Source of the DNA: Pseudomonadota bacterium
GTDB taxonomy: Bacteria > Bdellovibrionota > FAC87 > UBA2466
Assembly: GCA_043718025.1 (NCBI GenBank)
Contig: JAYSWN010000057.1
Coordinates: forward strand, 1 to 13,259
Direction: 5' to 3'
DNA: 13,259 bases
Shown here piece by piece: positions 1 to 13,259 of the stretch. Made by a program: the position numbers and the translations under genes. The first letter of the stretch is position 1. Every line of letters starts with the position of its first letter. Below the pieces are notes generated by a model. The model made no database searches, had not been told where the DNA came from, and saw nothing but the letters and a program-made list of their open reading frames with translations.

Positions 1-114
1 AGAACATCGTCACTTTTGATTTCTTCTGATTTTCGGAAAAACACGCACTCTCATAGCCTGAATTTCGCTTAAAGAAAAGGCTGCGAAAAAAAATGGTAAG
101 CCTTCGTAATTACT

Positions 115-1257
115 TCACTTAATTTTACTGGGCAGGGAGGCGCCCTTGCGCGCCGGAAGCTTGGCGGCGGTAGGCGGCGGGTAGTCGGGGTTTAATGGAG
201 CTACTGGCGCGACTTTGCGGCCGGCCCACCAGTATCCCACGACGAGCCCCAAGAAAATTCCGCCGGTGAAAATCGTGCCGGTGACTTTATTGAATACCGA
301 TTTTTTTTCTTTCGACGGGCGCTTCTTTTGGTAATCGATGGCCGGAGTGAGAATGGCCTCTTGATCTAAGTAGCGAAGAAGAATTTCTTCGGGATGGGCG
401 GCACGTTCGGGCCCTAAAAACTCTTCTAACGCGTTCACCAATTTACGGACCGATTTGTACCGATCCTCGGGGCGGGGCATGAGACAGCGCCTAACGATTC
501 GCTCTAAACCCCGCGGCACGGTGGATTGCATTTCACGCACCGGTACGTAATTGGCCTCACGAATTTTTTGAAAGACTGACTGCCCCTGGCTCTCTTTAAA
601 CGGCTTGGAGCCAGTGAGTATCTCGTAAAACGTAACGCCCAAAAGAAAAATATCGGTTTGAGGTGAGACCTGATCGCCTAAAATCTGCTCGGGCGACAGA
701 TAGGCGGGTGAGCCCACCATAAGACCAGGGCGCGTGAGCCCTTCGTGGCCTAGGTTCAGCGCAATGCCAAAATCCATCAGCTTCACTTCGCCACGTGAAG
801 TGAGGCGAATATTAGAGGGCTTGATGTCACGGTGAACCAAGTCGCGGGTGTGAATAAAATTAGCGCCTTTGGCCACGCCTAGTAAAATGCAAGCGGCCAC
901 TTCGGCCGGCACGTTTCCTAACTTTGCAATCACTTCGGAAACATCTACCCCGTCGATGAATTCCATGAGCAGGTAGGGCTCAGAACCATCTACAAAATCG
1001 TAAACGTGGGCAATGTTCTCGTGCAACACCGAAGCCAGTGCTTTGGCCTCACGACGAAACCGTTCGACCGTTTCGTCCTGATTCAAAAACTCATCTTTCA
1101 ATTTCTTGATGACCACGTAGCGATCTAGCGAAGTCTGCCAGGCCTTAAAGATTTGGGCCATGCCTCCGGCGGCGATGAGTTCTACTTTGTCGAGCTGGCC
1201 ACGGCCGGCCACTTGGTTGGTGAACTGCACTTCGAGGTCGGAGTCAGATCGGTTCAT
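115..1257 (-). CDS. Hanks-type (PknB-like) Ser/Thr protein kinase with C-terminal transmembrane anchor; preferred start ATG 1257 (~380 aa) rather than the ORF-track GTG at 1377
   Basis: Kinase motifs in order: IAAGGMAQIF (Gly loop), VVIKKL (catalytic Lys), RFRREAK (alphaC Glu), HRDIKPSN, MDFGIA, GSPAYLSPEQ, DIFLLG. Hydrophobic VTGTIFTGGIFLGLVVGYWWAG follows a basic patch and precedes a 34-aa Pro/Lys-rich tail. The 1258-1377 extension contains terminator-like hairpins, so it is probably non-coding. Confidence 0.93.
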   Translation of the reverse strand: MNRSDSDLEVQFTNQVAGRGQLDKVELIAAGGMAQIFKAWQTSLDRYVVIKKLKDEFLNQDETVERFRREAKALASVLHENIAHVYDFVDGSEPYLLMEFIDGVDVSEVIAKLGNVPAEVAACILLGVAKGANFIHTRDLVHRDIKPSNIRLTSRGEVKLMDFGIALNLGHEGLTRPGLMVGSPAYLSPEQILGDQVSPQTDIFLLGVTFYEILTGSKPFKESQGQSVFQKIREANYVPVREMQSTVPRGLERIVRRCLMPRPEDRYKSVRKLVNALEEFLGPERAAHPEEILLRYLDQEAILTPAIDYQKKRPSKEKKSVFNKVTGTIFTGGIFLGLVVGYWWAGRKVAPVAPLNPDYPPPTAAKLPARKGASLPSKIK

Positions 1258-1265
1258 GTGGGACG

Positions 1266-1274
1266 ATGATATCA
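1266..1274 (-). promoter_or_regulatory. Candidate extended -10 promoter (TG-A-TATCAT) 8 nt upstream of kinase ATG 1257
   Basis: Minus strand reads ccTGaTATCATcgtcccacATG, with no Shine-Dalgarno in the spacer. An alternative TAAAAT hexamer lies at 1301-1306. Confidence 0.4.
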
Positions 1275-1316
1275 GGCGCGGCCCAATGACATGGCGCACG
1301 ATTTTATACTGCCGCC

Positions 1317-1356
1317 AAAAGGGAAAAGCGGGACTAGGCACCGGCCTGGTCCCGCT
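1317..1356 (-). terminator. Intrinsic terminator-like hairpin with U-rich tail
   Basis: Minus strand AGCGGGAC-C-AGGC-CGGT-GCCT-A-GTCCCGCT (8+4 bp stem with one mismatch, 4-nt loop) followed by TTTCCCTTTT. Confidence 0.65.
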
Positions 1357-1360
1357 ATCC

Positions 1361-1399
1361 AAAAACCTCACCGCCACCTAAATGGCAGCGGCGGGTGAG
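1361..1399 (-). terminator. Second GC-rich hairpin followed by U5, immediately upstream of the 1317-1356 hairpin
   Basis: Minus strand CTCACCCGCCGCTGCC-ATTTA-GGTGGCGGTGAG-GTTTTT; CCGCUGCC pairs with GGUGGCGG (two G-U pairs). Confidence 0.4.
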
Positions 1400-1585
1400 A
1401 GAGGAGTAGTGGTATTATCGCGAAGGTTGCCCCCCGCGCTGCGTCTCCGCAGTCTTTTTCTTCGCCCCCACAGGACAAAGAATCTCTTATAAAGTTCGCC
1501 CCCGAACCCTTGCGACAACACGTTAAGTGTTTCGCGCCCCGACCTTCTCCATTTGCAAGACGTGCCAAGGGTGACAATTTACGGC

Positions 1586-1606
1586 CTGAATTCACTAAGA
1601 ATTCAG
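1586..1606. promoter_or_regulatory. Perfect 8-5-8 inverted repeat, possible transcription-factor site
   Basis: CTGAATTC-actaa-GAATTCAG in intergenic DNA. Confidence 0.35.
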
Positions 1607-1784
1607 TAAGTGATTAATGGCAAAAATGTTTTGGGGATTGAGGCAGTTAACGAATTTACCGGTTGAACTTCTGATTACTGTCTAATTGTCAGACAGCGGG
1701 CGCGGTTGGTCATTTTACACATTTCCTTGTGGCTTTCACAGACAGCGGCGATTGAGCGGCACGAGGGAGCCCGTCAGAAAGGAT

Positions 1785-3428
1785 TTAAGGACGAGCGGGA
1801 CGAAAAGATGAGTTCGGCGCTCGTTTCACATAGACGGTCACCATAAAAGGAAGGCCGCCCGCTCCCGAGCCCAAGTTCAATAATGTTGAAGACAATCGCG
1901 CCTCATACTTGTCTTTAAGCCAATTCTTAATCAGGGGAGACTGATCTTCCCACTGTATCTCGGTTATCGTGAATGCGTTTTGCTCTAATCCGAAGGCATA
2001 AAAGACATCTGGAGGTTCACTCTGAATTCTGTGAAAGAGATCTTGATGAAGGGGCCGTCGTAGCGAAGTGCCAACGTGCGCCCATAGGGGGCCCCCCATG
2101 ACTTTTTCTTTAAGCTGAGGATGACCCAAAACATAGACGCCGGAGGAATAGACTTCCAAAGGATGTCCCAGTTCCCTTTCCCAAATCGGTATGTTCCTAT
2201 CGAGCGCCTCAAAGAACTGAACCGTATCAAGGGAAGAGATAAGACCCTTCATAGGACCACGCTGCACGGCACGGTGAGGCATGCCAAGCAAAGGCTGAAA
2301 TCTTCTACCGAGCAAAACTAGCGATCCCAGCGCCACCAACACCAATGAAACTTCGAAAATAAACCTCTTGGGGCGATTTACTTTTGATAACGAGTGAAGC
2401 GCTTTTCCAGAACCGAGGAAACAAAGCGGAATCCAGTGCAGAATAAGATAGCCACCGCCCACCCCCGAGCTATACTTGGTGACCACCCCGCCCAAGGCGA
2501 GAAACAAACCTCCCACGGCAAACGGGTTCTCATTCACGGCCGACCAGATCCAGTCGGAACGAAACGATCGCGAAGGCAGCCGACGCAAGGTGACAAGGCA
2601 TAAGCCTAAAAGCAGGAGAATCTGCGGCGAAAGAAATCGTTGTACCAACGACAGAAACTCGCGCCACTCCGCCTTTACGAACAATGGCACCCGGGCCAGA
2701 CGGCTATCATATCCCTGCTGGCCGATATTGAGCCATTCCCCCGGGGCCCCGCCGGCCAGCACAGACGGAACAAAAAACAGAATGCTGAAAGCAGCGGTTA
2801 GAACTAAAAACCACAAACTGTTTCTGGCGGCAGACTTCAATCGATCGGAATCCGTGAAAAGATAGATCATCGTAAACACGATTCCGAAAAAAGCGTAATC
2901 CGGTTTGGTTATCAGAGCGGCCGCCGAAGCCAAAGCGATCCAAAATAGATTTCTCCGGGAAGGCCCACCTTTCGATTTTCGTGACCAGTACATCACCAAA
3001 GCAATCGTCTGCAAAGCGACTGGAAACTGGTTGTACCAAAGACAACCGCTGGCACCAAAGAATGCACAATGAGTAATCACGGCAAGACAAGACGTTTTCC
3101 ACCAACTCCATTGCAGATGGTGAATGGCAAAGTAACTGACGAAAAATACGGTAATTCCGTTGAGTAGCGATGCCGAAGTGGAATAGCCCAGAAGGGATAG
3201 CGGAAATAGCCACTCACCGAATGCCTGCACAACATAAATGACGGGGCCGAGCGGCGTTCCGAAATCACGGTAGGGGACAAGTCCAGCCGCAATCATTCTT
3301 CCGCCCTGAGCCAAATAGAACTCATCCCAGGTAACTCCAAGGCGGGCAGCAAGTTGGGTCAGTACCACTGAGCCAATTGCCATCACCGCACACAGGAGCG
3401 GGGCAGGCTTCGCAACGGAGCGGAACAT
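1785..3428 (-). CDS. Polytopic GT-C-fold glycosyltransferase (ArnT/PMT-like, lipid-phosphate-sugar dependent)
   Basis: After TM1, WDEFYLAQGGRMIAAGLVPYRDFGTPLGP (acidic DE pair plus GxxPYRDFxxxxGP); many hydrophobic segments; LITKPD motif; soluble C-terminal domain. The start could be 3428 or 3383; neither has a clear SD. Confidence 0.75.
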   Translation of the reverse strand: MFRSVAKPAPLLCAVMAIGSVVLTQLAARLGVTWDEFYLAQGGRMIAAGLVPYRDFGTPLGPVIYVVQAFGEWLFPLSLLGYSTSASLLNGITVFFVSYFAIHHLQWSWWKTSCLAVITHCAFFGASGCLWYNQFPVALQTIALVMYWSRKSKGGPSRRNLFWIALASAAALITKPDYAFFGIVFTMIYLFTDSDRLKSAARNSLWFLVLTAAFSILFFVPSVLAGGAPGEWLNIGQQGYDSRLARVPLFVKAEWREFLSLVQRFLSPQILLLLGLCLVTLRRLPSRSFRSDWIWSAVNENPFAVGGLFLALGGVVTKYSSGVGGGYLILHWIPLCFLGSGKALHSLSKVNRPKRFIFEVSLVLVALGSLVLLGRRFQPLLGMPHRAVQRGPMKGLISSLDTVQFFEALDRNIPIWERELGHPLEVYSSGVYVLGHPQLKEKVMGGPLWAHVGTSLRRPLHQDLFHRIQSEPPDVFYAFGLEQNAFTITEIQWEDQSPLIKNWLKDKYEARLSSTLLNLGSGAGGLPFMVTVYVKRAPNSSFRPARP

Positions 3429-3437
3429 AAAGTTTAC

Positions 3438-3453
3438 ATCGGTATTATCCGAT
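3438..3453. promoter_or_regulatory. Dyad ATCGG-TATTAT-CCGAT in the 51-bp divergent spacer
   Basis: 5-bp inverted repeat enclosing a -10-like TATTAT hexamer between the two GT-C start codons. Confidence 0.3.
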
Positions 3454-3479
3454 ATTTAGGTGAGGGGAAAATTCCGCCT

Positions 3480-5042
3480 ATGACACATAAAAAAGGTAAG
3501 GCATTGGCGTGGATTGCATTTATTTTCTTCCTCTTCAAAGCGCCACTCACTCTTGCCCCATACCATTTTGAGGAGTTGGTAATGCTCGACGCGGCGACCC
3601 GAGCTTTTTCAGGAGAGGTTGTCTATTTAGATTTCTATTACATCTATGGTCCACTTCCGCCGTATTTTTACGCTATCTTTTTTTCTATTTTGCCCAAGAC
3701 CTTGCTCACCATTCGGCTCGTCACTCTCTTGACCGGATGCGGAGTGGCCTTATTGATTTCATTGGTGTTCGAAAAAAAATCTCTCGGTAAACGGATCATT
3801 ATCACACTGTTGGCAACTTTGCCGGTAGCGATTTACCCGGCCTACGCCCACAATCACACGCTCTCCCTTCTGGGACTCGTCGGCTCAATCACATTTTTAA
3901 GCCGCTTTATTTTCAATCGAAAATTCAACGATCTGATCTACTCTTACGGCTTTCTAATTTTAATTCTACTATCTCGACCCGCCATCGCCGGTTTCGGCGC
4001 CACCCTCGGTTGGCTTTTGGTGGTGCTAACGCTCGGCGAATTAGCGCCAAAAGAGCGGCTCAAAATCACCGCTGGTGGAATCACCGGCTTGGTGATTTTG
4101 TTCGGGGGGCTCTATGCGATTTTCGGTGATCCCTTTTTGTGGGCCCTTACTCCGCGTTTTGATACCCTCGACGTCTGGAAGCCAAATTCGCTGGTATCGC
4201 TGATCAGCGCTTTATATGAGAACTTTGAATTAAAAAACGGATTATGGAACTTCCGTCAGCAAGTCATGGTTCGGGGAGCCTTTCTTTGTTTCGTACTTGC
4301 CCCCGGGATGGTGTTCTACTTCTACCGGAAAAATAGGAAAGTGAACCCGGAGTGTGCCAACTTCGTAATGATTTCCTGCCTTATCGTCTACGGCGGCCAT
4401 TTCGTGGATACTTTTTCGATGGGGGCCGGCCCATTGTTTATCCGTGGTCAGTATTTTTGGACTCCGCTGATCGCCGCAACCCTGGTAATTATCGACGACG
4501 CATTCACAGCCTCCCGTCGAAACTATTCGCTACTCGTACCCTCAGTCATTGTGTTGGGAATGGTTTCCGCGCTCTACTCCTCGTATTTCGTTTTGAATGT
4601 AGAGCGAATTCTGCGCAACGAGCGTTATACCAGCTCGGTTTTAAAGGGGACGGTCAAGTTGAAGGGCCACGATGGCTTTCTTAAGGCAACCGAGTTCATC
4701 AACTCACGGTGCCGGCCCGGGGAGAAGGTACTGGTCGGCGCTTATCACCCGGGGGCCCAACTTTTTCTTAAGTGTGAAAATGTAGTCCAGAAAGACTGCT
4801 GTTTCACACACCGCAATCCCAATTACGTTCCTCGCCAGCGAGAAACCCCCTACTCGCCAAATGGCCGCATTTCGTACCGAGAAATTGCTTACGAAATGGC
4901 GCGGAAAGAAAAGCCAAAATTCAGGTTGGTAAGCTTGGCGCAACATCCCTATTCAAAAACCTACGCCCCGCTTTGCGAGGGGTCCCATGGTCACCAGGAT
5001 TTTCCATGGGAGTTCGGTGAACTGCGCGTGTGCTGGGACTAA
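3480..5042 (+). CDS. Second polytopic GT-C-fold glycosyltransferase (ArnT/PMT-like)
   Basis: After TM1, HFEELVMLDAATRAFSGEVVYLDFYYIYGPLPPYFYA (EE pair plus GxxxYxDFxxxxGP); many TM segments; LLSRPA motif; Cys-rich soluble C-terminus; purine-rich AGGTGAGGGG upstream. Confidence 0.75.
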   Translation: MTHKKGKALAWIAFIFFLFKAPLTLAPYHFEELVMLDAATRAFSGEVVYLDFYYIYGPLPPYFYAIFFSILPKTLLTIRLVTLLTGCGVALLISLVFEKKSLGKRIIITLLATLPVAIYPAYAHNHTLSLLGLVGSITFLSRFIFNRKFNDLIYSYGFLILILLSRPAIAGFGATLGWLLVVLTLGELAPKERLKITAGGITGLVILFGGLYAIFGDPFLWALTPRFDTLDVWKPNSLVSLISALYENFELKNGLWNFRQQVMVRGAFLCFVLAPGMVFYFYRKNRKVNPECANFVMISCLIVYGGHFVDTFSMGAGPLFIRGQYFWTPLIAATLVIIDDAFTASRRNYSLLVPSVIVLGMVSALYSSYFVLNVERILRNERYTSSVLKGTVKLKGHDGFLKATEFINSRCRPGEKVLVGAYHPGAQLFLKCENVVQKDCCFTHRNPNYVPRQRETPYSPNGRISYREIAYEMARKEKPKFRLVSLAQHPYSKTYAPLCEGSHGHQDFPWEFGELRVCWD

Positions 5043-5061
5043 CCCCCCAATCCTAGGGTCA

Positions 5062-5070
5062 TGATACAAT
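5062..5070 (+). promoter_or_regulatory. Candidate extended -10 promoter (TG-A-TACAAT) for the aminotransferase operon
   Basis: TGnTACAAT about 90 nt upstream of ATG 5163; no good -35 visible. Confidence 0.45.
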
Positions 5071-5124
5071 TCTACTAGCGGTAGGCGTTTTTTTAACCAC
5101 GTCTGACGCGCCTTTCCAAAGCTC

Positions 5125-5143
5125 TGAAGAACCCGGTTCTTCA
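5125..5143. promoter_or_regulatory. Perfect 9-1-9 palindrome (operator or leader hairpin)
   Basis: TGAAGAACC-C-GGTTCTTCA, ending 19 nt before the ATG at 5163. Confidence 0.45.
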
Positions 5144-5162
5144 ACCAAACCCCAATAACAAT

Positions 5163-6302
5163 ATGAGCCGCCAAAATAAGCCAGCGACACATGCCCAGAC
5201 GCACGCGTTCATCCCCGTGAGTGAGCCCAACTTATCCCCCAAAGAGACGGGCTACGTTCTCGATTGTATGGAAACGGGATGGGTCTCTAGTCTCGGCACC
5301 TACATCAACCGTTTTGAAAAGGCCTTCGGCGAACACGTAGGTGCAGCCGAAGCGATTTCAATTTGTAACGGAACCGCCGCGCTGCACACCGCACTGCTAG
5401 CTCTAGGTATCGGGCCCGGTGATCAAGTTATTGTTCCTACTTTTACCTACATCGCTTCGGCCAACGCGGTCCATTACACCGGCGCCACGCCAGTGTTTGT
5501 CGACATAGAGGAAGACACTTGGAACATTGATCCAAAAAAAATTGAGGCCGCGGTAACCCCGCGAACCCGCGCAATCATGCCGGTGCATATTTACGGACAT
5601 CCCTGCGACATGGACGCCATTCTCGCCATCGCCAAACGAAAAAATCTCTTGGTCGTTGAAGACGCGGCCGAGGCTTTCGGCACTAAATACCGCGGTCAAC
5701 ATGTTGGCTGTCTGGGCGACGTCGGAGTATTCAGTTTTTTTGGAAACAAAACGATCACCACTGGCGAAGGGGGCATGATCGTTTTGAAGAATACCGCCCT
5801 TGCCAAAACCATTCGTCTTATCAAGGGACAAGGAATGTCCGCCGAACGCCGCTATTTTTTTGAACGAGTGGGCTACAACTACCGAATGACCAACATCGAG
5901 GCGGCGATTGGACTGGGCCAACTCGAAAGGGCCTCCGAGCTCATTTCCGGAAAACGTCGCAACGCTTTGCTCTATCGCGAAGGGCTGTCATCCACTTCGG
6001 GAATAGGGTTACCCATAGAAAAAGACTACGCCTTCAATTCATTTTGGATGTTTAGCATCACCGTAGCGCCTGAGTTCGGACGCAGTCGCGATGAATTGGC
6101 CGAAATTCTGAAATCGAAAGGAATAGAGACCCGGCCCTTCTTTATTCCGCTTCACACCATGCCCCCCTACTTTCAAGGCACCGGAAAGTTTCCGATTGCG
6201 GAGTTCACCTCATCGATCGGTCTAAGCTTGCCAAGCTCCACGCGGCTTAAAACGGATGACATCAATCGCATCTGCGCCGCAATTCGAGCAGCAAAAAAAT
6301 GA
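5163..6302 (+). CDS. perA: DegT/DnrJ/EryC1/StrS PLP-dependent sugar aminotransferase, most similar to GDP-perosamine synthase
   Basis: NGTAALHTAL, VPTFTYIASANAV, PVHIYGHP, EDAAEAFG, SFFGNKTITTGEGG (PLP Lys), GYNYRMTNI, IETRPFFIPLH. The family is certain; perosamine specificity is by recalled motif similarity only. Confidence 0.88.
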   Translation: MSRQNKPATHAQTHAFIPVSEPNLSPKETGYVLDCMETGWVSSLGTYINRFEKAFGEHVGAAEAISICNGTAALHTALLALGIGPGDQVIVPTFTYIASANAVHYTGATPVFVDIEEDTWNIDPKKIEAAVTPRTRAIMPVHIYGHPCDMDAILAIAKRKNLLVVEDAAEAFGTKYRGQHVGCLGDVGVFSFFGNKTITTGEGGMIVLKNTALAKTIRLIKGQGMSAERRYFFERVGYNYRMTNIEAAIGLGQLERASELISGKRRNALLYREGLSSTSGIGLPIEKDYAFNSFWMFSITVAPEFGRSRDELAEILKSKGIETRPFFIPLHTMPPYFQGTGKFPIAEFTSSIGLSLPSSTRLKTDDINRICAAIRAAKK

Positions 6303-6748
6303 ATGCCGTTGTCATACTGGGGAAGGAACACGAGCTGGCGTTCAAAGAATTTCTGGCCCGCCTTCAGCAAGCGGGTATCGACAAATTATTCCACCCCCAC
6401 GCATTTACGAGCGAGATCGCTCACAAGTTATGCCATCGAACTGGGGAGGACGAGTACTTCATTCTCATCGAGCACGAACGCATCGTGGCCTACGGAATGC
6501 TGCGAGGTTGGGACGATGGCTACAAAATTCCTTCCCTTGGTCTTTGTATCGACCCCGCCGAACAGAGGAAAGGCTACGGCACATTCATGATGCATCACCT
6601 AATTGCGGCTGCGAAAAGTAAAAATTCACCGCAAATTATGCTCACGGTAAAAATGCAGAACCAAGTGGCCATTGCCCTGTACCGAAAGTTTGGTTTTGAG
6701 TTTACGCCACTCGATAATTCCACGCTCAAGGGCCTGCTGGCCTTTTAG
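6299..6748 (+). CDS. GNAT-family N-acyltransferase, probably acylating the amino sugar
   Basis: Acyl-CoA motif A (QRKGYGTFMM) and C-terminal V..QNQVAIALYRKFGF; ATGA start/stop overlap with the aminotransferase at 6299-6302. Confidence 0.88.
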   Translation: MNAVVILGKEHELAFKEFLARLQQAGIDKLFHPHAFTSEIAHKLCHRTGEDEYFILIEHERIVAYGMLRGWDDGYKIPSLGLCIDPAEQRKGYGTFMMHHLIAAAKSKNSPQIMLTVKMQNQVAIALYRKFGFEFTPLDNSTLKGLLAF

Positions 6749-6754
6749 GAAAAC

Positions 6755-7498
6755 ATGGAACTCACCATTCTCATCACCACAATCAATGAAGCCGACAACC
6801 TGAAGCTCCTTATCCCCGATCTTCATGCGGCGTTGGTCGTGGAACAAATGAACTACGAGATCCTCATTATTGATGGGCCATCCACCGATAAAACCGCAGA
6901 AGTGGCCAGTTCCCTAAATTGCCGAGTAGAGCGGCAAACTAGTCCTGGTTACGCCCAAGCTATTCGCGACGGAATTCGCTCGGCGAAGGGAAAACGCATC
7001 ATTGTGATGGACGCCGATGGCTCCCATGCTCCAGCCGACGCCGCCAGGCTGTATCAAAATCGCAACCTCGCCGATATCGTCATCAACTCCCGCTATATTT
7101 CCAAAGGAGGAAGCGACACGAAATGGAGTAGAAGTCTGCTCAGTCGCTTTCTCAACTTCTGCTACCGAACGGTGCTAGGACTTCCCTTTCGGGAAATCTC
7201 AGGCGGCTTTCGTATCTACCGCAGCGAAATTTTTCAGCGTTTCGAACTCAAATCCAAGTTTTATGAAGTCCAAGAAGAAATGCTCATTAAACCTTACTGG
7301 CTAGGCTACAGAGCGGTGGAAATACCCTACGTCTACCATGAGCGGGTTCACGGGGTGTCCAAAGCAAAATTAATCACTTACGGCTTCCACCTTCTACTCG
7401 CCATGATGCGATTTCGTCTGGAAAAAGAACGGTTTCTAAAGAGCCTCACCGCATCCGAATCAACCCGTACGGATACCTCGCATCGTATTGGACTTTAG
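6755..7498 (+). CDS. GT2 polyprenol-phosphate glycosyltransferase (DPM1/Ppm1-like)
   Basis: TTINEADNL, IIDGPSTDKT, GYAQAI, VMDADGSH (DxD), SRY..GG, GGFRIYR, EIPYVYHERVHGVSK; AGGA SD; 6 nt from the GNAT stop. Confidence 0.88.
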   Translation: MELTILITTINEADNLKLLIPDLHAALVVEQMNYEILIIDGPSTDKTAEVASSLNCRVERQTSPGYAQAIRDGIRSAKGKRIIVMDADGSHAPADAARLYQNRNLADIVINSRYISKGGSDTKWSRSLLSRFLNFCYRTVLGLPFREISGGFRIYRSEIFQRFELKSKFYEVQEEMLIKPYWLGYRAVEIPYVYHERVHGVSKAKLITYGFHLLLAMMRFRLEKERFLKSLTASESTRTDTSHRIGL

Positions 7499-7549: not shown

Positions 7550-8071
7550 ATGTCTATGGATTCAGTAGCTTGTTCGGGCTGTTTACGGCCAAAAGTGGTG
7601 GAGAAGTGCGGCTTATGCGAAGCTCCGCTTTGTAAAAAGTGCACCCAATTCGTGAAGCCCAACACCTTTGCCTTTTTGAACCCGCTGCCCGCCGAGCTAA
7701 GCCACAAAGAGTATTGTGAGCCCTGCTATTGGGCAAAGGTAGAGCCAGCCTTAGCCGACTACGGCCAGAAGATGTACCGCGCCAAAAACTTTTTTGTGTT
7801 TCACCGCCACCAAGGCGAAGAGACGCGCCTATGGAAACGAACCGAAAAGCCGCTTAACGTGATTGACTGTACCGATCGCGAAGAAACATTACTGCGTTTG
7901 GCTTTTGCCGCGGCCAAATTGGGAGACTTTAACGCCCTATTGGACGTGACCATCACCCAGAAGCAGAAGCGCAACCAAGGTTACCAAACCTCGCGCTTTT
8001 CCGGCGTGGCGGTACCAGTTAAACTCGAGTCAAAATTGATTGCGGCGATGGAAGCCTCTATAAAGAGGTAG
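7550..8071 (+). CDS. Hypothetical protein: N-terminal 8-Cys zinc finger plus putative YbjQ/UPF0145-like C-terminal domain
   Basis: Four CxxC pairs (C8/11, C20/23, C28/31, C56/59); REETLLRLAFAAAKLGDFNALLDV...SGVAVPV; followed by a terminator. Confidence 0.7.
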   Translation: MSMDSVACSGCLRPKVVEKCGLCEAPLCKKCTQFVKPNTFAFLNPLPAELSHKEYCEPCYWAKVEPALADYGQKMYRAKNFFVFHRHQGEETRLWKRTEKPLNVIDCTDREETLLRLAFAAAKLGDFNALLDVTITQKQKRNQGYQTSRFSGVAVPVKLESKLIAAMEASIKR

Positions 8072-8186: not shown

Positions 8187-9101
8187 TCAACGCGTAGGAC
8201 ACCACCAACAGAAGTTAACGTCGGCGGGACGGTCGTTGTTCATGCCGCGCACTACAACGGTTAATTGGTCGGCCTGAACGTTTTCAGTATTAACTCGACC
8301 GCCGTATCCATACGGGTAAGCGGAAGTGCTCTTAGCCACCAAGCTCGAAAGGTTGCGAGTGACGGTTACCGGCGTGGTGGAGGTGCTCCTAAAACCCGAA
8401 ACCGGGGTCACCACCGCGGTAAGGTTTAACGTTGGCGATTCGGCTTCTACCGTGGCCTTCGTTTTACCGATTGCCGTGGTCAATCTGATAATCGATCCCG
8501 GCACCACGCGCAGTTTTGCTTCTAAACTTTTCCCATCCGCAAGCTTGTTCCAAGCCCAGATAACCGTCTCTTGGCGGCCGTAGGGGCTCCCCTGAAGAGT
8601 GTATCCGTCGTAGTTTGCGTCTTGCGGATAATCGATATCAATGCGGTACTGCATTACGTTGGCGGCCATGGTGAGGACCAAATCATAGACTCCCCAGTTG
8701 CGCGATTGATTGTTATCGCCCCAGAATGAGAATTGGTTTGAGCCTTGATTAGGGTAGAAAAAGTTGGTGAAATATCGGTCGAAGGCGCTCACTTTAATCG
8801 TGGTCGAGTAGACTGCCGAGACTACCGTAGAGTAATTCGAAAAAATCCAGTCGGCGTATTGCATCAACGCGTTGTCGGGACCGTAATCGTTTGATTGCAC
8901 CAACGAGGTTCCGCGAAGCTGAGTTGCGCCCCTTTGGCCCGTGGCGGTTTTTACTAAGAAAGATTTACGATCGTCATCGGGAGCGTAAGAAAACGATTTC
9001 TTTTCGACTTTGGTGGCAAGGTCCATGGCCAGCGGTGGAATGATTTTTCCACAGCCGATAATTCCTAAAGCGATTGATAGCGTTGTGGCGTAGCGAAACA
9101 T
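8187..9101 (-). CDS. Uncharacterised predicted lipoprotein (304 aa); start revised to ATG 9101
   Basis: GGGAGG SD (9107-9112) just upstream of the ATG; signal MFRYATTLSIALGIIG-C with lipobox Cys17; mature region rich in Thr/Ser/Asn/aromatics; ends in NFCWWCPTR. Confidence 0.8.
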   Translation of the reverse strand: MFRYATTLSIALGIIGCGKIIPPLAMDLATKVEKKSFSYAPDDDRKSFLVKTATGQRGATQLRGTSLVQSNDYGPDNALMQYADWIFSNYSTVVSAVYSTTIKVSAFDRYFTNFFYPNQGSNQFSFWGDNNQSRNWGVYDLVLTMAANVMQYRIDIDYPQDANYDGYTLQGSPYGRQETVIWAWNKLADGKSLEAKLRVVPGSIIRLTTAIGKTKATVEAESPTLNLTAVVTPVSGFRSTSTTPVTVTRNLSSLVAKSTSAYPYGYGGRVNTENVQADQLTVVVRGMNNDRPADVNFCWWCPTR

Positions 9102-9341
9102 GGTTGCCTCCCTAGATGCGTTCCAAGTTGAAAATCGTTGTTGCAAATCAGTCAGTATGAATTGGTATTGCAAAGGGGGGACCAAACCGCGACTCAGCTA
9201 GATCCGTATTCTGTGGGGCTTCAGTTGCGCTTGGCTTTCATACGGCGGCCTTCAAATCAAAATCCGACAGCCACGCGGAAACGTAATATAAACGTATAAA
9301 TTCAAATACTTAAATCACATAAAAGCGACAATGTCGAACCA

Positions 9342-9386: not shown

Positions 9387-10439
9387 GTGAAGACACTCTT
9401 TTTCGGAAGTACCCAAGGCACCCACTGTTCACTGCATTACTTCACGGCCCTCTCCAGGCTGGGCCATCCTGTCTTTGCCTACGATCCGCAAGTCTTCCGC
9501 TGCGATTCGTTAGCCGAAAAAATACGGCTTAAACTCACTCACCAGCCATCGCCGGCCCGCATCGCTCGAGCAAAAAATAGGCTTCTTGCTCTCACCGCCC
9601 AGAACCAGTTCGACTTGGTTTTCGTGATGGCCGAAAATTTTTTGGATGCCGAAACCATTCAAGAGATTCAAAAGGGCAGCGGCGGTAAAACTCGGGTTTG
9701 TTACCACTCTCACGACAACGTCTTTTCCCCCGGCATCCTAAAGCCGCATCATTTTGAACAGACTTTAAAAGCCTACGACTTTCTGTTCACGACCAAGTCG
9801 CAAAATGTCGCCAAATACGTTGCGCTAGGCCAAGCGAATGCCTTTTTTATCGCCTCGGCGTACGAGCCAACTTGCCATCGGCCCATCTCCCGGGCCGAAA
9901 GCTGCCTACCCCGCGACTATCCCGTTTCGTTTGTGGGAACCTTTGATGGTTCACGCTTGCCTGAAATCGAAGCTAGCGGCTGGCATCGCACTTTTGTGTG
10001 GGGCGACGGCTGGCGCCGTTGGCCCGGATACCTAAGCCATCAGGCTAACATTCAACCCGAAGCCATTTACTACCTTCAGTTTGCCGACGTGATAAGCCGC
10101 AGCGCCTGTTCATTGGGCCTGCTGCGGGCTGAAGCCGAAGATCGCCACACCCAACGCACATTCGAAATTCCGGCCTGCGGCGGCTTGCAGTTTGCGCCCC
10201 GTAACGAGGAGATTCAAAACTACTTCGATGAAAATAAAGAAATTGTGCTGTTCGACTCAAACCAAGAGCTAAAAGAGAAGTTAGATTTTTATCTCACCCA
10301 TGAAACCGAAAGAAAAAAGATCGCCCACGCGGGTTACCAACGCTGCCTCAGCGGCAAACATTCATACGTAGATCGTGTTTCGGAAATGCTTCAACTCATC
10401 TCGCCGTACTTTAAGAAAACAGCCGGGCAATCACGGTAA
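9387..10439 (+). CDS. CgeB/YkvP-family (Glyco_trans_1_2-type, GT-B) glycosyltransferase
   Basis: VSFVGT, HTQRTFEIPACGG, YFDENKEIVLFDS..ELKEKLDFYL.HETERKKIAHAG..RC...HSYVDR are characteristic of the family C-terminus; GTG start. Confidence 0.85.
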   Translation: MKTLFFGSTQGTHCSLHYFTALSRLGHPVFAYDPQVFRCDSLAEKIRLKLTHQPSPARIARAKNRLLALTAQNQFDLVFVMAENFLDAETIQEIQKGSGGKTRVCYHSHDNVFSPGILKPHHFEQTLKAYDFLFTTKSQNVAKYVALGQANAFFIASAYEPTCHRPISRAESCLPRDYPVSFVGTFDGSRLPEIEASGWHRTFVWGDGWRRWPGYLSHQANIQPEAIYYLQFADVISRSACSLGLLRAEAEDRHTQRTFEIPACGGLQFAPRNEEIQNYFDENKEIVLFDSNQELKEKLDFYLTHETERKKIAHAGYQRCLSGKHSYVDRVSEMLQLISPYFKKTAGQSR

Positions 10440-11574
10440 GGTGCTGCTTAGGATGCAGTTTTTTTGCCAGCGCCCAGAAATCCGCCGTCAATTCGGTTGG
10501 AGGCTCCACCGCTTTAGATTCTAAGAGAGAACGCAGCTCTGCAAGCGAAGAAAAAAAATGGATGAGCCCTTCGAAGTCTTCGGTCTTGGGCACGCGGGTC
10601 GAGAACACCGGTTTGTGGCGGTGCAGCGCCTCAAGCGTTTTCACGGCAAACGCCCCGTCCTGTGACATCAGCTCGGCGTAGGGGAAAAAGGCCACGTCTA
10701 TCGCATCCCAGTAAGCCAACGCTTCCTCCCTGGGGCACCAAGCGACCCGATGAAAATTGGGATAGCGCGCGAGTTTGAGTAATTTGCTCTCACCTAGCTC
10801 ATCGGTTCGCCCCACCAGCAAAACTCCCCAACTCGGAAAGGCCACCAGAGTCTGTTCGATCAGCGAAAAATCTAGCCCTTCCCCCAGGTGAGAGCCTACG
10901 TATCCCAAGACCTGATTAGGAAAGTGCTTAGGCAATTTTGCCCGCGCCGCAAGCGGTTGTGCGGCCAAACACGCCAAGGATAAACTCACCGGGGGAAATA
11001 CCCGGTGAGTTTTCTGTTTCTGCTTCGTTGAAAACAGGGCGGTGGCAAAAGAATTTTGGCAGGTGATAATCCGGGCTTTGTCGCCAAGCAGCCCATCGGG
11101 AAGATGGCCATACGGATTATCAAACACCGAATAAATGTCGGGCGCGGGCAAAGACTCAAGCAACGCTTCGTCGCAGCCTCCCCAAATCCAAAAGAGTGGA
11201 TTACTTGCGGCCTTCAAATACCCTAAAAGTTGTCGAGCTTCCCAACGCCGACTGAGAACATTCAACTTTGGCACGCGCCGAAGGGGCAGTTGTCTGAGCG
11301 AAGTCACCCTTAGATTGGGTCGGGTGGGGTTAACGGTGGGACGGTACCGGCGCCAGCCGCGGCCATCGATCCAAGTTACGGAAAGGCCCTCGTCGGCCAA
11401 AAGGTAGGCCAGGCTCTGCTGTACAAAACCGTGAGCCTCCCAAAATCGCTCGAGGCTAAACATCACCACGTGGGAATGGCGTTTAAAGAACGGTTTGGCT
11501 CGCTCCCACTCTGACTGGATCGCGTCCTCCCAACCATTTGGGACAAGCGGGAGGTGTGGCGGAGGGTGGGTCAT
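10411..11574 (-). CDS. GT-B glycosyltransferase (GT4/TuaH-like)
   Basis: VLGYVGS, LDFSLI..., FPSWGVLLVG, PNFH, DVAFFPY, AVKTLEALHRHKPVFST (variant of the PxKxxEYLAxGKPVVST donor-binding motif). Confidence 0.75.
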   Translation of the reverse strand: MTHPPPHLPLVPNGWEDAIQSEWERAKPFFKRHSHVVMFSLERFWEAHGFVQQSLAYLLADEGLSVTWIDGRGWRRYRPTVNPTRPNLRVTSLRQLPLRRVPKLNVLSRRWEARQLLGYLKAASNPLFWIWGGCDEALLESLPAPDIYSVFDNPYGHLPDGLLGDKARIITCQNSFATALFSTKQKQKTHRVFPPVSLSLACLAAQPLAARAKLPKHFPNQVLGYVGSHLGEGLDFSLIEQTLVAFPSWGVLLVGRTDELGESKLLKLARYPNFHRVAWCPREEALAYWDAIDVAFFPYAELMSQDGAFAVKTLEALHRHKPVFSTRVPKTEDFEGLIHFFSSLAELRSLLESKAVEPPTELTADFWALAKKLHPKQHLTVIARLFS

Positions 11575-11578
11575 CTTT

Positions 11579-12931
11579 TTATTCGGGATTCACTTCAGCC
11601 ATCGCCTCTTCCTCGACGTCTTCGGTAGGGAGAGTGAGTAAGCTTAGTTTAGCATTGTAGGATAGGAGTTCGGCATATCGACCAAAGGCCACTAAAGTAT
11701 CGAACAGCCGATCGAGCTTTTCATTAGGAAAATAATTCTGCAGTTTGGCCAGAACCGCCTCTTTTTCTATCGCCTTAGATTCGCTCTCCGAAAGCCACGC
11801 CAGCAGGGTCTGAAAAATGCGTAGCCCCCGCACCTGATTAGAGAACAGCTCTTTTCTCTCGAGCGTGTCGCCCCGAACAAAGCGCTTGCCAAGCTCAGTG
11901 AAAACTACCGTCTGTTTCGGAGTGTCAACAAAGTCTAAGATCTCGGCGGTCTTGGTTACGGCCAAAGTGTGACCAAACTCGCTCTCGGTTTCGTTGGCGA
12001 GATTAAAAATATCCATCTTGCCGCCGTGATCGTCCACCACTTCTAGTAACCCAATAATTTCTGAGGGGCCAACCGACGGTAAGCTCTCGAGCCCCTGGTA
12101 CCAGGCGGGCTGCGACATGGTCGGCGGCTTTTCAATCGTTTCGGGAATTAAGGCCTCGGTAATTACGGAATGGATCACATCGATAAGGTCGCGAAGCTTT
12201 TTGTCTTTAGGATCACGCGGGTATGGCAAGCCGTTAGTCAAAACCGTACGGATGTGCCCCGGATCGGTGCCAAAAACAAAAACCCGCTGAGCCATCATCG
12301 CCGCTTCGGTAATATCGTGAGTTATCATCACCACGCTTTTAACGGCCTTTGATTTCTCTTTCCATATGTTGATAACTTCGGCCCGCATGTTTTCCGCCGT
12401 CAATACGTCGACCGCCGAGAAAGGCTCATCCAGACACAAGATCTCGGGCCGTACCGCTAGCGCGCGTGCGATGCCCACGCGTTGGCGCATGCCACCGGAG
12501 AGCTCGCGAGGGTAAGCCTCTTCGAATCCGCCCAATCCCACCATGTCGATGGCTTCGTTGACCCGAATTTTTACTTGCCGGGAAGTCATCGGAAACTGAT
12601 TGAGCCCGAGCCCAATATTTTGCTCAACCGTAAACCAGGGCAATAGCGCAAAGTTTTGAAACACCAATGAGATCTGATGATTGATTCCGTGCAACGGCTT
12701 GCCGTGAGCTAAGACCTGCCCTTCGGTGGGCTGAAGCAGCCCGGCCATGATCTTAAGGGTCGTGGTCTTGCCACAGCCCGAGGGGCCGAGAAAGGCAACG
12801 ATCTCGCCCTCCTGAATGGAAACATTCACGTTCTTCAGAACCTGAAGTTCGCGCCCTTTTTCCATACGAAACCGGTGCGAAATTCTTTCTAAAGAAAGCA
12901 GCGGCTCTTTGTAATTTGACGAGCTGGACAA
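11579..12931 (-). CDS. ABC transporter ATP-binding protein, NitT/TauT (nitrate/sulfonate/bicarbonate) family, with long C-terminal AAA-associated domain
   Basis: Walker [10 protein letters not shown]-loop [10 protein letters not shown], signature LSGGMRQR, Walker [13 protein letters not shown]-loop ITHD; ~170-aa C-terminal extension; TTG start with GGAG SD 7 nt upstream. Confidence 0.93.
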
Positions 12932-12935
12932 GAAT

Positions 12936-13259
12936 TCACTCCAAACGAAAACGCGTTTCGGCTAACCGGTATAGCCGATTCCAAAATAGCCGATTCAATA
13001 TCACAACTGTTGATACCATGACGAGCACGGCCCCGCCTAAACGGGCAAAGTCTCCGGCTTGCGCCGCTTGGGTGATGGTAGCGCCAATGCCGTGGGCAAC
13101 CAATTCTGAATTACCCACCCTAACCACTTCGGCCACGATGCAAGCATTCCACGATCCGCCAGCCGCCGTTATCAAGCCGTTAACCAATGAGGGGAAAATC
13201 GCGGGCAAAATGATCGACTTCCAGTAATGCCAGCCCCTCACTCTAAATATTGCCGCCAA
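12936..13259 (-). CDS. ABC transporter permease, NitT/TauT family; C-terminal part only (5' end beyond the window)
   Basis: EAA-loop-like [56 protein letters not shown]; stop 4 nt before the ATPase start. Confidence 0.88.

Follow-up and report, generated by a model that had tools for sequence, protein, structure and literature searches.

What might an aminotransferase of the perosamine-synthase type, an acyltransferase of the GNAT family and a family 2 glycosyltransferase (GT2) be making, when they are coded as one compact gene unit next to two membrane glycosyltransferases? The question is raised by a 13,259-nucleotide stretch of DNA (hereafter the window), which is contig C187 of G000, the genome of a Pseudomonadota bacterium placed by GTDB in the Bdellovibrionota (4.1 Mb, 92% complete). 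A first-pass annotation had proposed an Arn-like, lipid-carrier-dependent surface modification system, using an N-acyl-perosamine-type sugar and two transferases of the GT-C fold. The five genes are as it described them: the aminotransferase (Per) and GNAT genes overlap by 4 nt (ATGA, 6299-6302) and a gap of 6 nt (6749-6754) separates GNAT from GT2, beside the membrane proteins A and B. As a rule, perosamine enters repeats that are assembled in the cytoplasm, with a GDP sugar as source; a polyprenyl-phosphate-linked form, if true, would be a new donor for GT-C enzymes. The reading preferred here, with a probability of roughly 0.55, is that Per, GNAT and GT2 make GDP-N-acyl-perosamine and load it on polyprenyl phosphate, and that a GT-C protein then attaches the sugar to an acceptor of the cell envelope, outside the cytoplasm. 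No lipid-linked perosamine or dideoxyhexose donor was found in the literature searched, which omits most subscription papers.

Recurrence of the Per-GNAT-GT2 unit

The conserved unit is Per-GNAT-GT2, without the two neighbouring GT-Cs. The three genes recur in the same order, with unrelated genes on both sides, in locus L040 (on contig C236 of G129, a genome of the same family as G000). They are also found in locus L014 of the Elusimicrobiota genome G401, where Per is followed by a single open reading frame (ORF) of 928 amino acids, with no stop and no N. This frame contains a GNAT domain (residues 53-142), a GT2 domain (166-325) and a PMT_2 domain (477-634; 33.9 bits, over the cut-off), and an in-frame ATG overlaps the Per stop codon as ATGA, as in the window. 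Both loci were found through the GNAT profile and not through GT2, and all three genomes belong to uncultured bacteria. The union of the three domains in one protein behind Per makes L014 the best evidence for a putative lipid-linked N-acyl-perosamine donor; the GT-C part of this protein is, by sequence, of a different family from A and B.

The three cassette GT2s are 56-58% identical and form one branch (support 97/92) of a tree built with 46 of 117 GT2 domains, namely the 45 best-scoring ones and one G000 paralogue. Searches of three phyla (401, 401 and 331 genomes) brought up no further member of this clade, the third phylum being that of genome G802; the next-best scores there were 177, 223 and 241 bits, against 456-488 for the clade members, values inflated by a model built from those same three proteins. 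Neither the best 80 of at least 439 metagenome matches (no more than 37% identity) nor five genomes with conventional Per-GNAT clusters contained one. Thus, every known member of the GT2 clade sits directly behind a Per-GNAT pair. Judging by the ORF lists and a Pfam scan of six proteins, the cassette has no cytoplasmic glycosyltransferase as neighbour in L014 or L040. The five-gene system drawn by the first-pass annotation is therefore divided by its occurrence in other genomes: Per-GNAT-GT2 is present in two more, in one of them fused to a GT-C, while A and B are not a conserved part of the cassette. Among ten Per loci from relatives, whose neighbours were checked by eye, no GNAT or cassette GT2 was present except in the window itself.

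Several GT2-PMT_2 fusions were also observed in the phylum of G401 (L204, L205, L210, L218 and L219), and G401 alone has 24 PMT_2 matches.

The predicted sugar, its acyl group and the lipid carrier

From the observed genes, families, folds, synteny and L014 fusion we infer a route, including the order of acylation and loading, all the activities, the partner GT-C and the acceptor. Gmd, whose gene is present elsewhere in the genome, would provide GDP-4-keto-6-deoxymannose; Per, with its 50% identity to known synthases, would aminate C4 to give GDP-perosamine; GNAT, to judge from its gene linkage, would acylate the amine, with formation of GDP-4-acylamido-4,6-dideoxy-D-mannose, probably the N-acetyl form. 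GT2 would then produce polyprenyl-P-Rha4NAcyl on a carrier of undecaprenyl type, a step suggested by its conserved residues, the restriction of its clade and the fusion; a flippase would move the lipid-linked sugar across the membrane, and a GT-C protein would transfer it to the envelope acceptor.

Per matches the DegT/DnrJ/EryC1 family of Pfam at 420.7 bits. Among solved sugar aminotransferases the Caulobacter perosamine synthase is the closest (390 bits), followed by an unnamed sugar aminotransferase (313 bits) and by ArnB (214 bits), and no chain of ArnB, DesI, WecE or PglE type exceeds 214 bits. Per is also 50% identical to a protein annotated as RfbE/PerA and, to the same extent, to ECs_2841, which we take to be the Per of Escherichia coli O157 (its record reads arnB). 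The best NCBIfam family is LegC, with 367.8 bits under a cut-off of 420, and the ArnB family PRK11658 reaches 260.8 bits against a cut-off of 631. The gmd gene scores over its cut-off in G000, on a different contig from the cassette (C99:28393-29349), and in G401. With a perosamine synthase as closest solved relative and gmd available, the assignment of Per as perosamine-synthase-like made in the first-pass annotation appears sound.

GNAT has a Pfam match of 61.6 bits, and its matches to solved structures are weak, the best being RimI (E 5.6e-6). A profile scan of GTDB genomes gave 152 relatives, the best 80 of which are covered by the locus counts reported here. A DegT-type neighbour scoring at least 250 bits to the window Per is present in 71 of these 80 loci (at least 340 bits in 57), so that the GNAT family is tied to Per-like enzymes; gmd lies within 18 of them. 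Most of the loci look like ordinary O-antigen-type polysaccharide clusters. GNAT occurs in 2 of the 38 genomes of the host class and in 1 of the 17 genomes of the family of G401. One GNAT relative, P0038, shares 56% identity with the protein of the window. Both the Per and the GNAT trees fit a shared descent of the cassette, but weakly. In the Per tree, locus L089, a cluster of gmd/Wzm/Wzt/GT4 type (gmd 441 bits), is the first row beyond the cassette group; in the GNAT tree it falls within the group of five rows. Its position suggests that the cassette may have arisen when the Per-GNAT pair of such a cluster joined a lipid-carrier GT2.

The same GNAT family was seen in ten viral contigs of up to 459 kb (L235-L244), with gmd in the locus of three, which possibly reflects virus-encoded amino-sugar glycosylation. 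A GNAT relative (42%) is also coded on an Azospirillum plasmid, in a cluster of NeuB/nonulosonic-acid type that contains a longer Per-like aminotransferase (53%); several GTDB loci are arranged in the same way, with aminotransferases of about 486 amino acids.

GT2 has a Pfam match of 80 bits; its best solved match is PfDPMS (81 bits), ArnC reaches 33 bits, and the ArnC family PRK10714 scores 41.7 bits against a cut-off of 529. According to PMC5526996, R117, R131 and S135 of PfDPMS (PDB 5mlz) are the lipid-phosphate residues, H94 contacts the mannose O3, Asp39 binds guanine, Lys178 contacts the mannose O4/O6, and R202 and K208 belong to the acceptor loop. In the alignment, GT2 keeps E12, D89 and D91 (DAD motif), H94, R117, R131, S135, R202 and K208; unlike PfDPMS, it has no transmembrane domain, and D39, Q93, G176 and K178 are replaced by Gly (Gly41), Ser, Phe and Glu (Glu171), respectively. 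With the acceptor-phosphate residues kept, GT2 can be classed as a putative DPMS-like polyprenyl-phosphate sugar synthase, as the first-pass annotation had anticipated. The replacement of Asp39 and Lys178 lowers the case for DPM1/Ppm1 membership proper without naming another donor: among 118 related GT2 rows, Gly is found at the D39 column in 25 and Glu or Asp at the K178 column in 36, so that the swaps, common in the wider subfamily, point to no donor. For the same reason Glu171 was rejected as a mark of a 4-amino donor, an acid at that column being too common.

A parallel comes from a clade of 18 GT2 rows (support 100/100), situated in the unresolved region of the tree that also contains the cassette GT2; this clade adjoins CDP-3,6-dideoxyhexose genes in 15 of 18 loci. 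The neighbours include RfbF, RfbG and RfbH, all over cut-off, and a homologue of the CDP-tyvelose 2-epimerase (477 bits to 1orr); L097, L099 and L101 also contain GtrA and a membrane transferase, which is A-type in L097 and L101. These loci likely represent a lipid-linked, tyvelose-type three-component system; no paper on a tyvelose/GtrA/undecaprenyl system was found in the same, mostly non-subscription, literature. Thus, the wider GT2 subfamily seems to load rare deoxysugars on lipid carriers, and this clade supports, by analogy, the general lipid-carrier reading. It also weakens, together with the Gly in place of Asp39, the argument of the first-pass annotation that DPM1-likeness indicates a GDP-mannose-type donor.

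Other relatives of the cassette GT2 are fused to methyltransferases (L197-L199, L300, L301 and L303-L305) and may load methylated sugars on a lipid carrier; in L303 and L304 the flanking genes code for multi-pass membrane proteins or are CDP-sugar-like.

Membrane transferases and known glycosylation systems

A and B have no Pfam match and no useful NCBIfam match; a word-index homologue search returned one relative for A and none for B, and a profile of the A family, run against PDB sequences, reached ArnT at E 0.25 only. In the Atlas, both proteins are placed at 0.99 beside clusters in which part of the members (34% and 42%) have PMT_2, and a PMT_2 match at E no higher than 0.01 was obtained for 20 of 34 relatives of A. 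The structural model of A (predicted local distance difference test, pLDDT, 82) matches GT-C structures by Foldseek; by VIA it aligns with Pmt at Z 20.9 (root-mean-square deviation 3.9, 348 residues aligned) and with ArnT 5f15 at Z 18.7 (5.2, 433 aligned), and the top 20 rows are all GT-C-fold, the next row having Z 6.2. The model thus strongly indicates a GT-C fold for A. The model of B (pLDDT 64) was folded with relatives of A as alignment and so is not independent of A. Its best Foldseek rows are ArnT, PglB and AglB, at E about 1e-3 (ArnT 5f15 at 1.1e-3, none at or below 0.001), and the top 28 listed ranks are all GT-C; with hhalign, B matches the family of A at probability 90.5 and E 1.3e-6, and it has an acidic pair, E30-E31, at the position of D35-E36 of A. 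A GT-C fold is thus probable also for B, on the Foldseek and hhalign matches, with less weight than for A. The first-pass annotation had therefore recognised the two membrane proteins correctly, A more securely than B.

What it had assumed of their role fares less well, since the inclusion of two GT-Cs in the system depends on adjacency in one genome, and none lies beside the cassette in G129. That a GT-C may use the cassette donor is suggested by the physical fusion in L014; for A and B, which are not conserved with the cassette, the tie consists of that adjacency and of the A-type GT-Cs that follow related GT2s in L097 and L101. A is divergent from B, with 51 nt between them, and B is on the same strand as Per and ends 120 nt upstream of it; only B can therefore share the operon, and it is the best candidate for the local transferase. 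Given the rest of the pathway, it is somewhat favoured that B and/or A act as the transferases in the window genome. The GT-C is, however, an exchangeable part of the system. GT-Cs of A/B type occur in 35 of the 401 genomes of the phylum.

A third A-type GT-C of G000 lies near a 513-aa membrane protein and a Wzm/Wzt-like pair, and two genomes of the genus show a comparable neighbourhood.

The L-Ara4N (4-amino-4-deoxy-L-arabinose) pathway, ArnBCADTEF, proceeds through C4 transamination, N-acylation, loading on undecaprenyl phosphate by a GT2 and transfer by a GT-C. The predicted chemistry of the cassette follows the same order, and A and B share the fold of ArnT. Unlike Arn, the cassette has a Per-type enzyme for ArnB, GNAT for the ArnA formyltransferase, and a DPM1-like GT2 devoid of membrane helices for ArnC; no ArnD, ArnE or ArnF is found in the locus, and the 11 proteins of the window that were scanned include no ArnA dehydrogenase/formyltransferase or ArnD, a search that did not extend to the rest of the genome. 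The label Arn-like thus holds for the general logic and goes no further: formyltransferase, deformylase and flippase are missing from the locus, and Per and GT2 score far below the ArnB and ArnC family cut-offs. Besides, an N-acylated sugar is neutral and would not mask charge as Ara4N does; as acceptor, a surface glycan, the core of lipopolysaccharide or a glycoprotein, carrying the sugar as a neutral side branch, is more likely than lipid A phosphates with a charge-masking function.

A closer counterpart may be the three-component systems (GtrA/GtrB/Gtr*; undecaprenyl-phosphate pentofuranose/GT136 of Citrobacter), in which, according to PMC11127046, where ArnE and Ara4N are also mentioned, a synthase charges polyprenyl phosphate with a single sugar, which is then transferred by a GT-C that varies and is the strain-specific part. 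The cassette is likewise predicted to pair a polyprenyl-phosphate sugar synthase with a variable GT-C, the fold being that of A, less firmly that of B, and that of the L014 fusion with its PMT_2 domain. It differs in that the donor would be an N-acylated 4-amino-6-deoxy sugar provided by linked Per and GNAT, that one member fuses GNAT, GT2 and GT-C, and that there is no flippase in the cassette loci and no GtrA in the three genomes. Rather than as Arn, the cassette is probably to be classed as three-component extracytoplasmic glycosylation, in a variant with a new donor sugar. For A and B, a model of two transferases sharing one donor is offered, by architecture only, by Rhizobium RgtE, a prenyl-phosphate-galacturonic acid synthase that serves several transferases, including RgtD and RgtF (PMC7663294); unlike the sugar predicted here, that of Rgt is acidic and is placed on lipid A.

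Perosamine is also a component of the Vibrio cholerae O1 O-antigen, and WbdR/PerB is a left-handed beta-helix. PMC5981137 describes perosamine as a major O-antigen sugar in Brucella and E. coli O157, N-acylated by WbdR in O157 (Gmd/Per/WbdR) and by the formyltransferase WbkC in Brucella (Per/WbkC), and remarks that no equivalent of wbdR seems to be present in other producers of N-acetyl-perosamine. The cassette Per belongs to the same aminotransferase family as in these pathways and the same sugar nucleotide is predicted; unlike them, its acyltransferase is a GNAT, and no Wzx, Wzy, ABC or GT4 protein is part of it. The GNAT family is thus a concrete candidate for the perosamine N-acyltransferase where wbdR is lacking, the gap noted in that text.

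A broader interpretation can be put forward only tentatively, as somewhat less probable than its opposite: Per-GNAT-GT2 would be a mobile cassette, supplying a new polyprenyl-phosphate-N-acyl-perosamine donor by means of a perosamine N-acyltransferase of GNAT fold and uncharacterised family; interchangeable GT-Cs, one of them a single chain with acylating, loading and transferring activity, would graft this sugar, an O-antigen epitope, from outside onto envelope glycans or proteins; and the cassette would belong to a wider GT2 subfamily by which rare deoxysugars, such as perosamine and those of tyvelose type, are diverted onto lipid carriers. Such a system might serve as a tool in glycoengineering, to add a single perosamine branch after polymerisation. 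With the 928-aa fusion and the soluble three-gene cassette, the claim lends itself to direct tests in vitro.

Competing explanations, gene layout and neighbouring genes

Several observations weigh against the preferred reading, namely that the cassette loads N-acyl-perosamine on a lipid carrier for a GT-C. The cassette is found in three genomes only, two of one family, and the fusion in a single one; since GT2s joined to a GT-C are common in the phylum of G401 (PMT_2 on 5 of 12 GT2 ORFs scanned), only the GNAT part of the L014 protein is special. The cassette-type GT2 is absent from 78 of the 80 GNAT loci, whose usual partners are GT4 (47 of 80), Wzt (16), Wzm (11) and Wzx clusters (13 and 8), partner families being derived from protein clustering with one representative named per cluster. 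The GNAT tree puts the three cassette members with two non-cassette rows (support 93 for the group of five), and the Per tree groups the three cassette loci with a weak support of 74. In none of the three genomes is gmd linked to the cassette, and in G129 it is split into two frames, either by an assembly error or as a broken gene; the loss of the guanine-binding Asp39 and of Lys178 in GT2 belongs here too. On the membrane side, G129 has no protein of A/B type beside the cassette and no A/B-type GT-C in its genome (three PMT_2 matches elsewhere, plus GT87 proteins), and an orthologue of the fused GT-C of L014 was rejected for both G000 and G129 on the lack of a sequence match. Of the 33 genomes of the family, 17 have A/B-type GT-Cs and 1 has GNAT; 29 short and 10 long loci around such GT-Cs contain no Per or GNAT, three of them having a weak GT2 neighbour, and G000 itself contains 12 or more further PMT_2 matches, besides numerous GT2s that could feed A and B. 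No flippase was found in the three cassette loci and the GtrA family (PF04138) is present in none of the three genomes, SMR, MATE and DUF2304 not having been searched for; PF03706 proteins occur in all three, unlinked to the cassette.

Part of this evidence would suit an arrangement in which GT2 makes nothing more unusual than polyprenyl-phosphate mannose (or glucose) for the many GT-Cs of the genome, Per and GNAT serve cytoplasmic glycosyltransferases such as the two of GT-B type about 2 kb downstream, and the genes travel together as a surface-glycan island. The similarity to PfDPMS, with H94, D89 and R117 kept, agrees with it, as do the GT4, ABC or Wzx genes of many GNAT loci devoid of the cassette GT2 and the lack of a GT-C beside the cassette in G129. 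The in-frame GNAT-GT2-GT-C protein of L014 is, however, hard to explain unless the acylated sugar is the substrate of GT2; moreover, G000 already has a separate canonical Ppm1-like GT2, the cassettes of L014 and L040 showed no cytoplasmic glycosyltransferase as neighbour, and the GT2 clade was never met away from Per-GNAT in the genomes searched, so that a mannose synthase is considered unlikely. A true Arn logic, improbable to a greater degree, would make the acetyl group a temporary mask: a deacetylase coded elsewhere would free the amine after loading, and the GT-C would put cationic perosamine on lipid A phosphates. ArnD/ArnT and NaxD/FlmK are unmasking-then-transfer pathways of this kind; lpxC and a YdjC-family deacetylase are present in all three cassette genomes, G000 included, and both A and B match ArnT structurally. 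None of the three loci, however, contains a deacylase; the YdjC of G000 lies on another contig, in one frame of about 725 amino acids with a weak GT2 match, which suggests a pathway of its own; and A matches protein O-mannosyltransferases (Z 20.9 and 18.8) as well as ArnT, so that the fold does not name lipid A. Finally, the lipid-carrier architecture may be right and the sugar another one, such as a LegC-type GDP-bacillosamine, a dTDP- or CDP-linked 4-amino-4,6-dideoxyhexose, or a perosamine bearing an acyl group other than acetyl. The LegC family match of Per, the unlinked and, in G129, split gmd, the missing guanine-binding Asp of GT2 and the weak structural matches of GNAT leave room for this; the 390 bits of Per to a solved perosamine synthase, against at most 214 for the other aminotransferase types, and the gmd of L089, the nearest neighbour of the cassette group in the trees, make it the least probable of the three.

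As regards the window itself, an 18.8-kb Logan contig, present in two runs from which this DNA may derive, covers positions 1-7482 and differs from them by 0 letters in one run and 1 in the other; the gene order is therefore not a join made in this assembly alone. The third-codon-position GC content of the five genes lies between the 16th and 73rd percentile of the genome, with no sign of recent transfer, and a promoter scan gave fewer matches than chance (3, with 5.7 expected). Positions are collected in Table 1.

Table 1. Positions of the cassette genes, their neighbours and the other loci discussed (bare numbers are window positions).
Feature	Position	Strand	Remarks
GT-C membrane glycosyltransferase A	1785-3428	-	547 aa; ArnT/PMT-like fold, conserved first-loop Asp35
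Probable GT-C membrane glycosyltransferase B	3480-5042	+	520 aa; distant relative of A
Per, GDP-perosamine-synthase-like PLP (pyridoxal phosphate) aminotransferase	5163-6302	+	Sequence similarity
GNAT, predicted perosamine N-acyltransferase	6299-6748	+	Motif YGMLRGW; family tracks Per-like aminotransferases
DPM1/Ppm1-like GT2 without transmembrane helix	6755-7498	+	Polyprenyl-phosphate-binding residues kept
Ser/Thr kinase	115-1377		Unrelated to cassette
Cys-rich protein	7550-8071	+	173 aa; 51 nt after GT2; no Pfam/NCBIfam match
Protein with lipoprotein-like start	8187-9185		332 aa; no Pfam/NCBIfam match
Two cytoplasmic glycosyltransferases	9387-11574	convergent	PF13524-type (350 aa) and TuaH-like (387 aa); 3' ends overlap
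Nitrate/sulfonate-type ABC (ATP-binding cassette) ATPase with AAA_assoc_C, and permease fragment	11579-13259		Unrelated to cassette
L014 fusion	L014:7965-10751		As called; probable start 7992
CDP-sugar GT2 loci	L097:4471-12225; L099:317-7866; L101:6340-16012		Also L095, L098, L100, L176-L185
Canonical Ppm1-like GT2 of G000	C193:8751-9464		
Third A-type GT-C of G000	C166:30799-32301 (L251:6800-8302)		
Split gmd of G129	G129:C66:3828-4872 (L250)		
GT2-YdjC frame of G000	G000:C154:20969-23146 (L309:6970-9147)		
Azospirillum GNAT cluster	L245:7953-12866		Plasmid NZ_CP039644.1

The GT2-YdjC frame of G000 lies beside multi-pass membrane proteins, and probably belongs to a separate lipid-linked hexosamine pathway.

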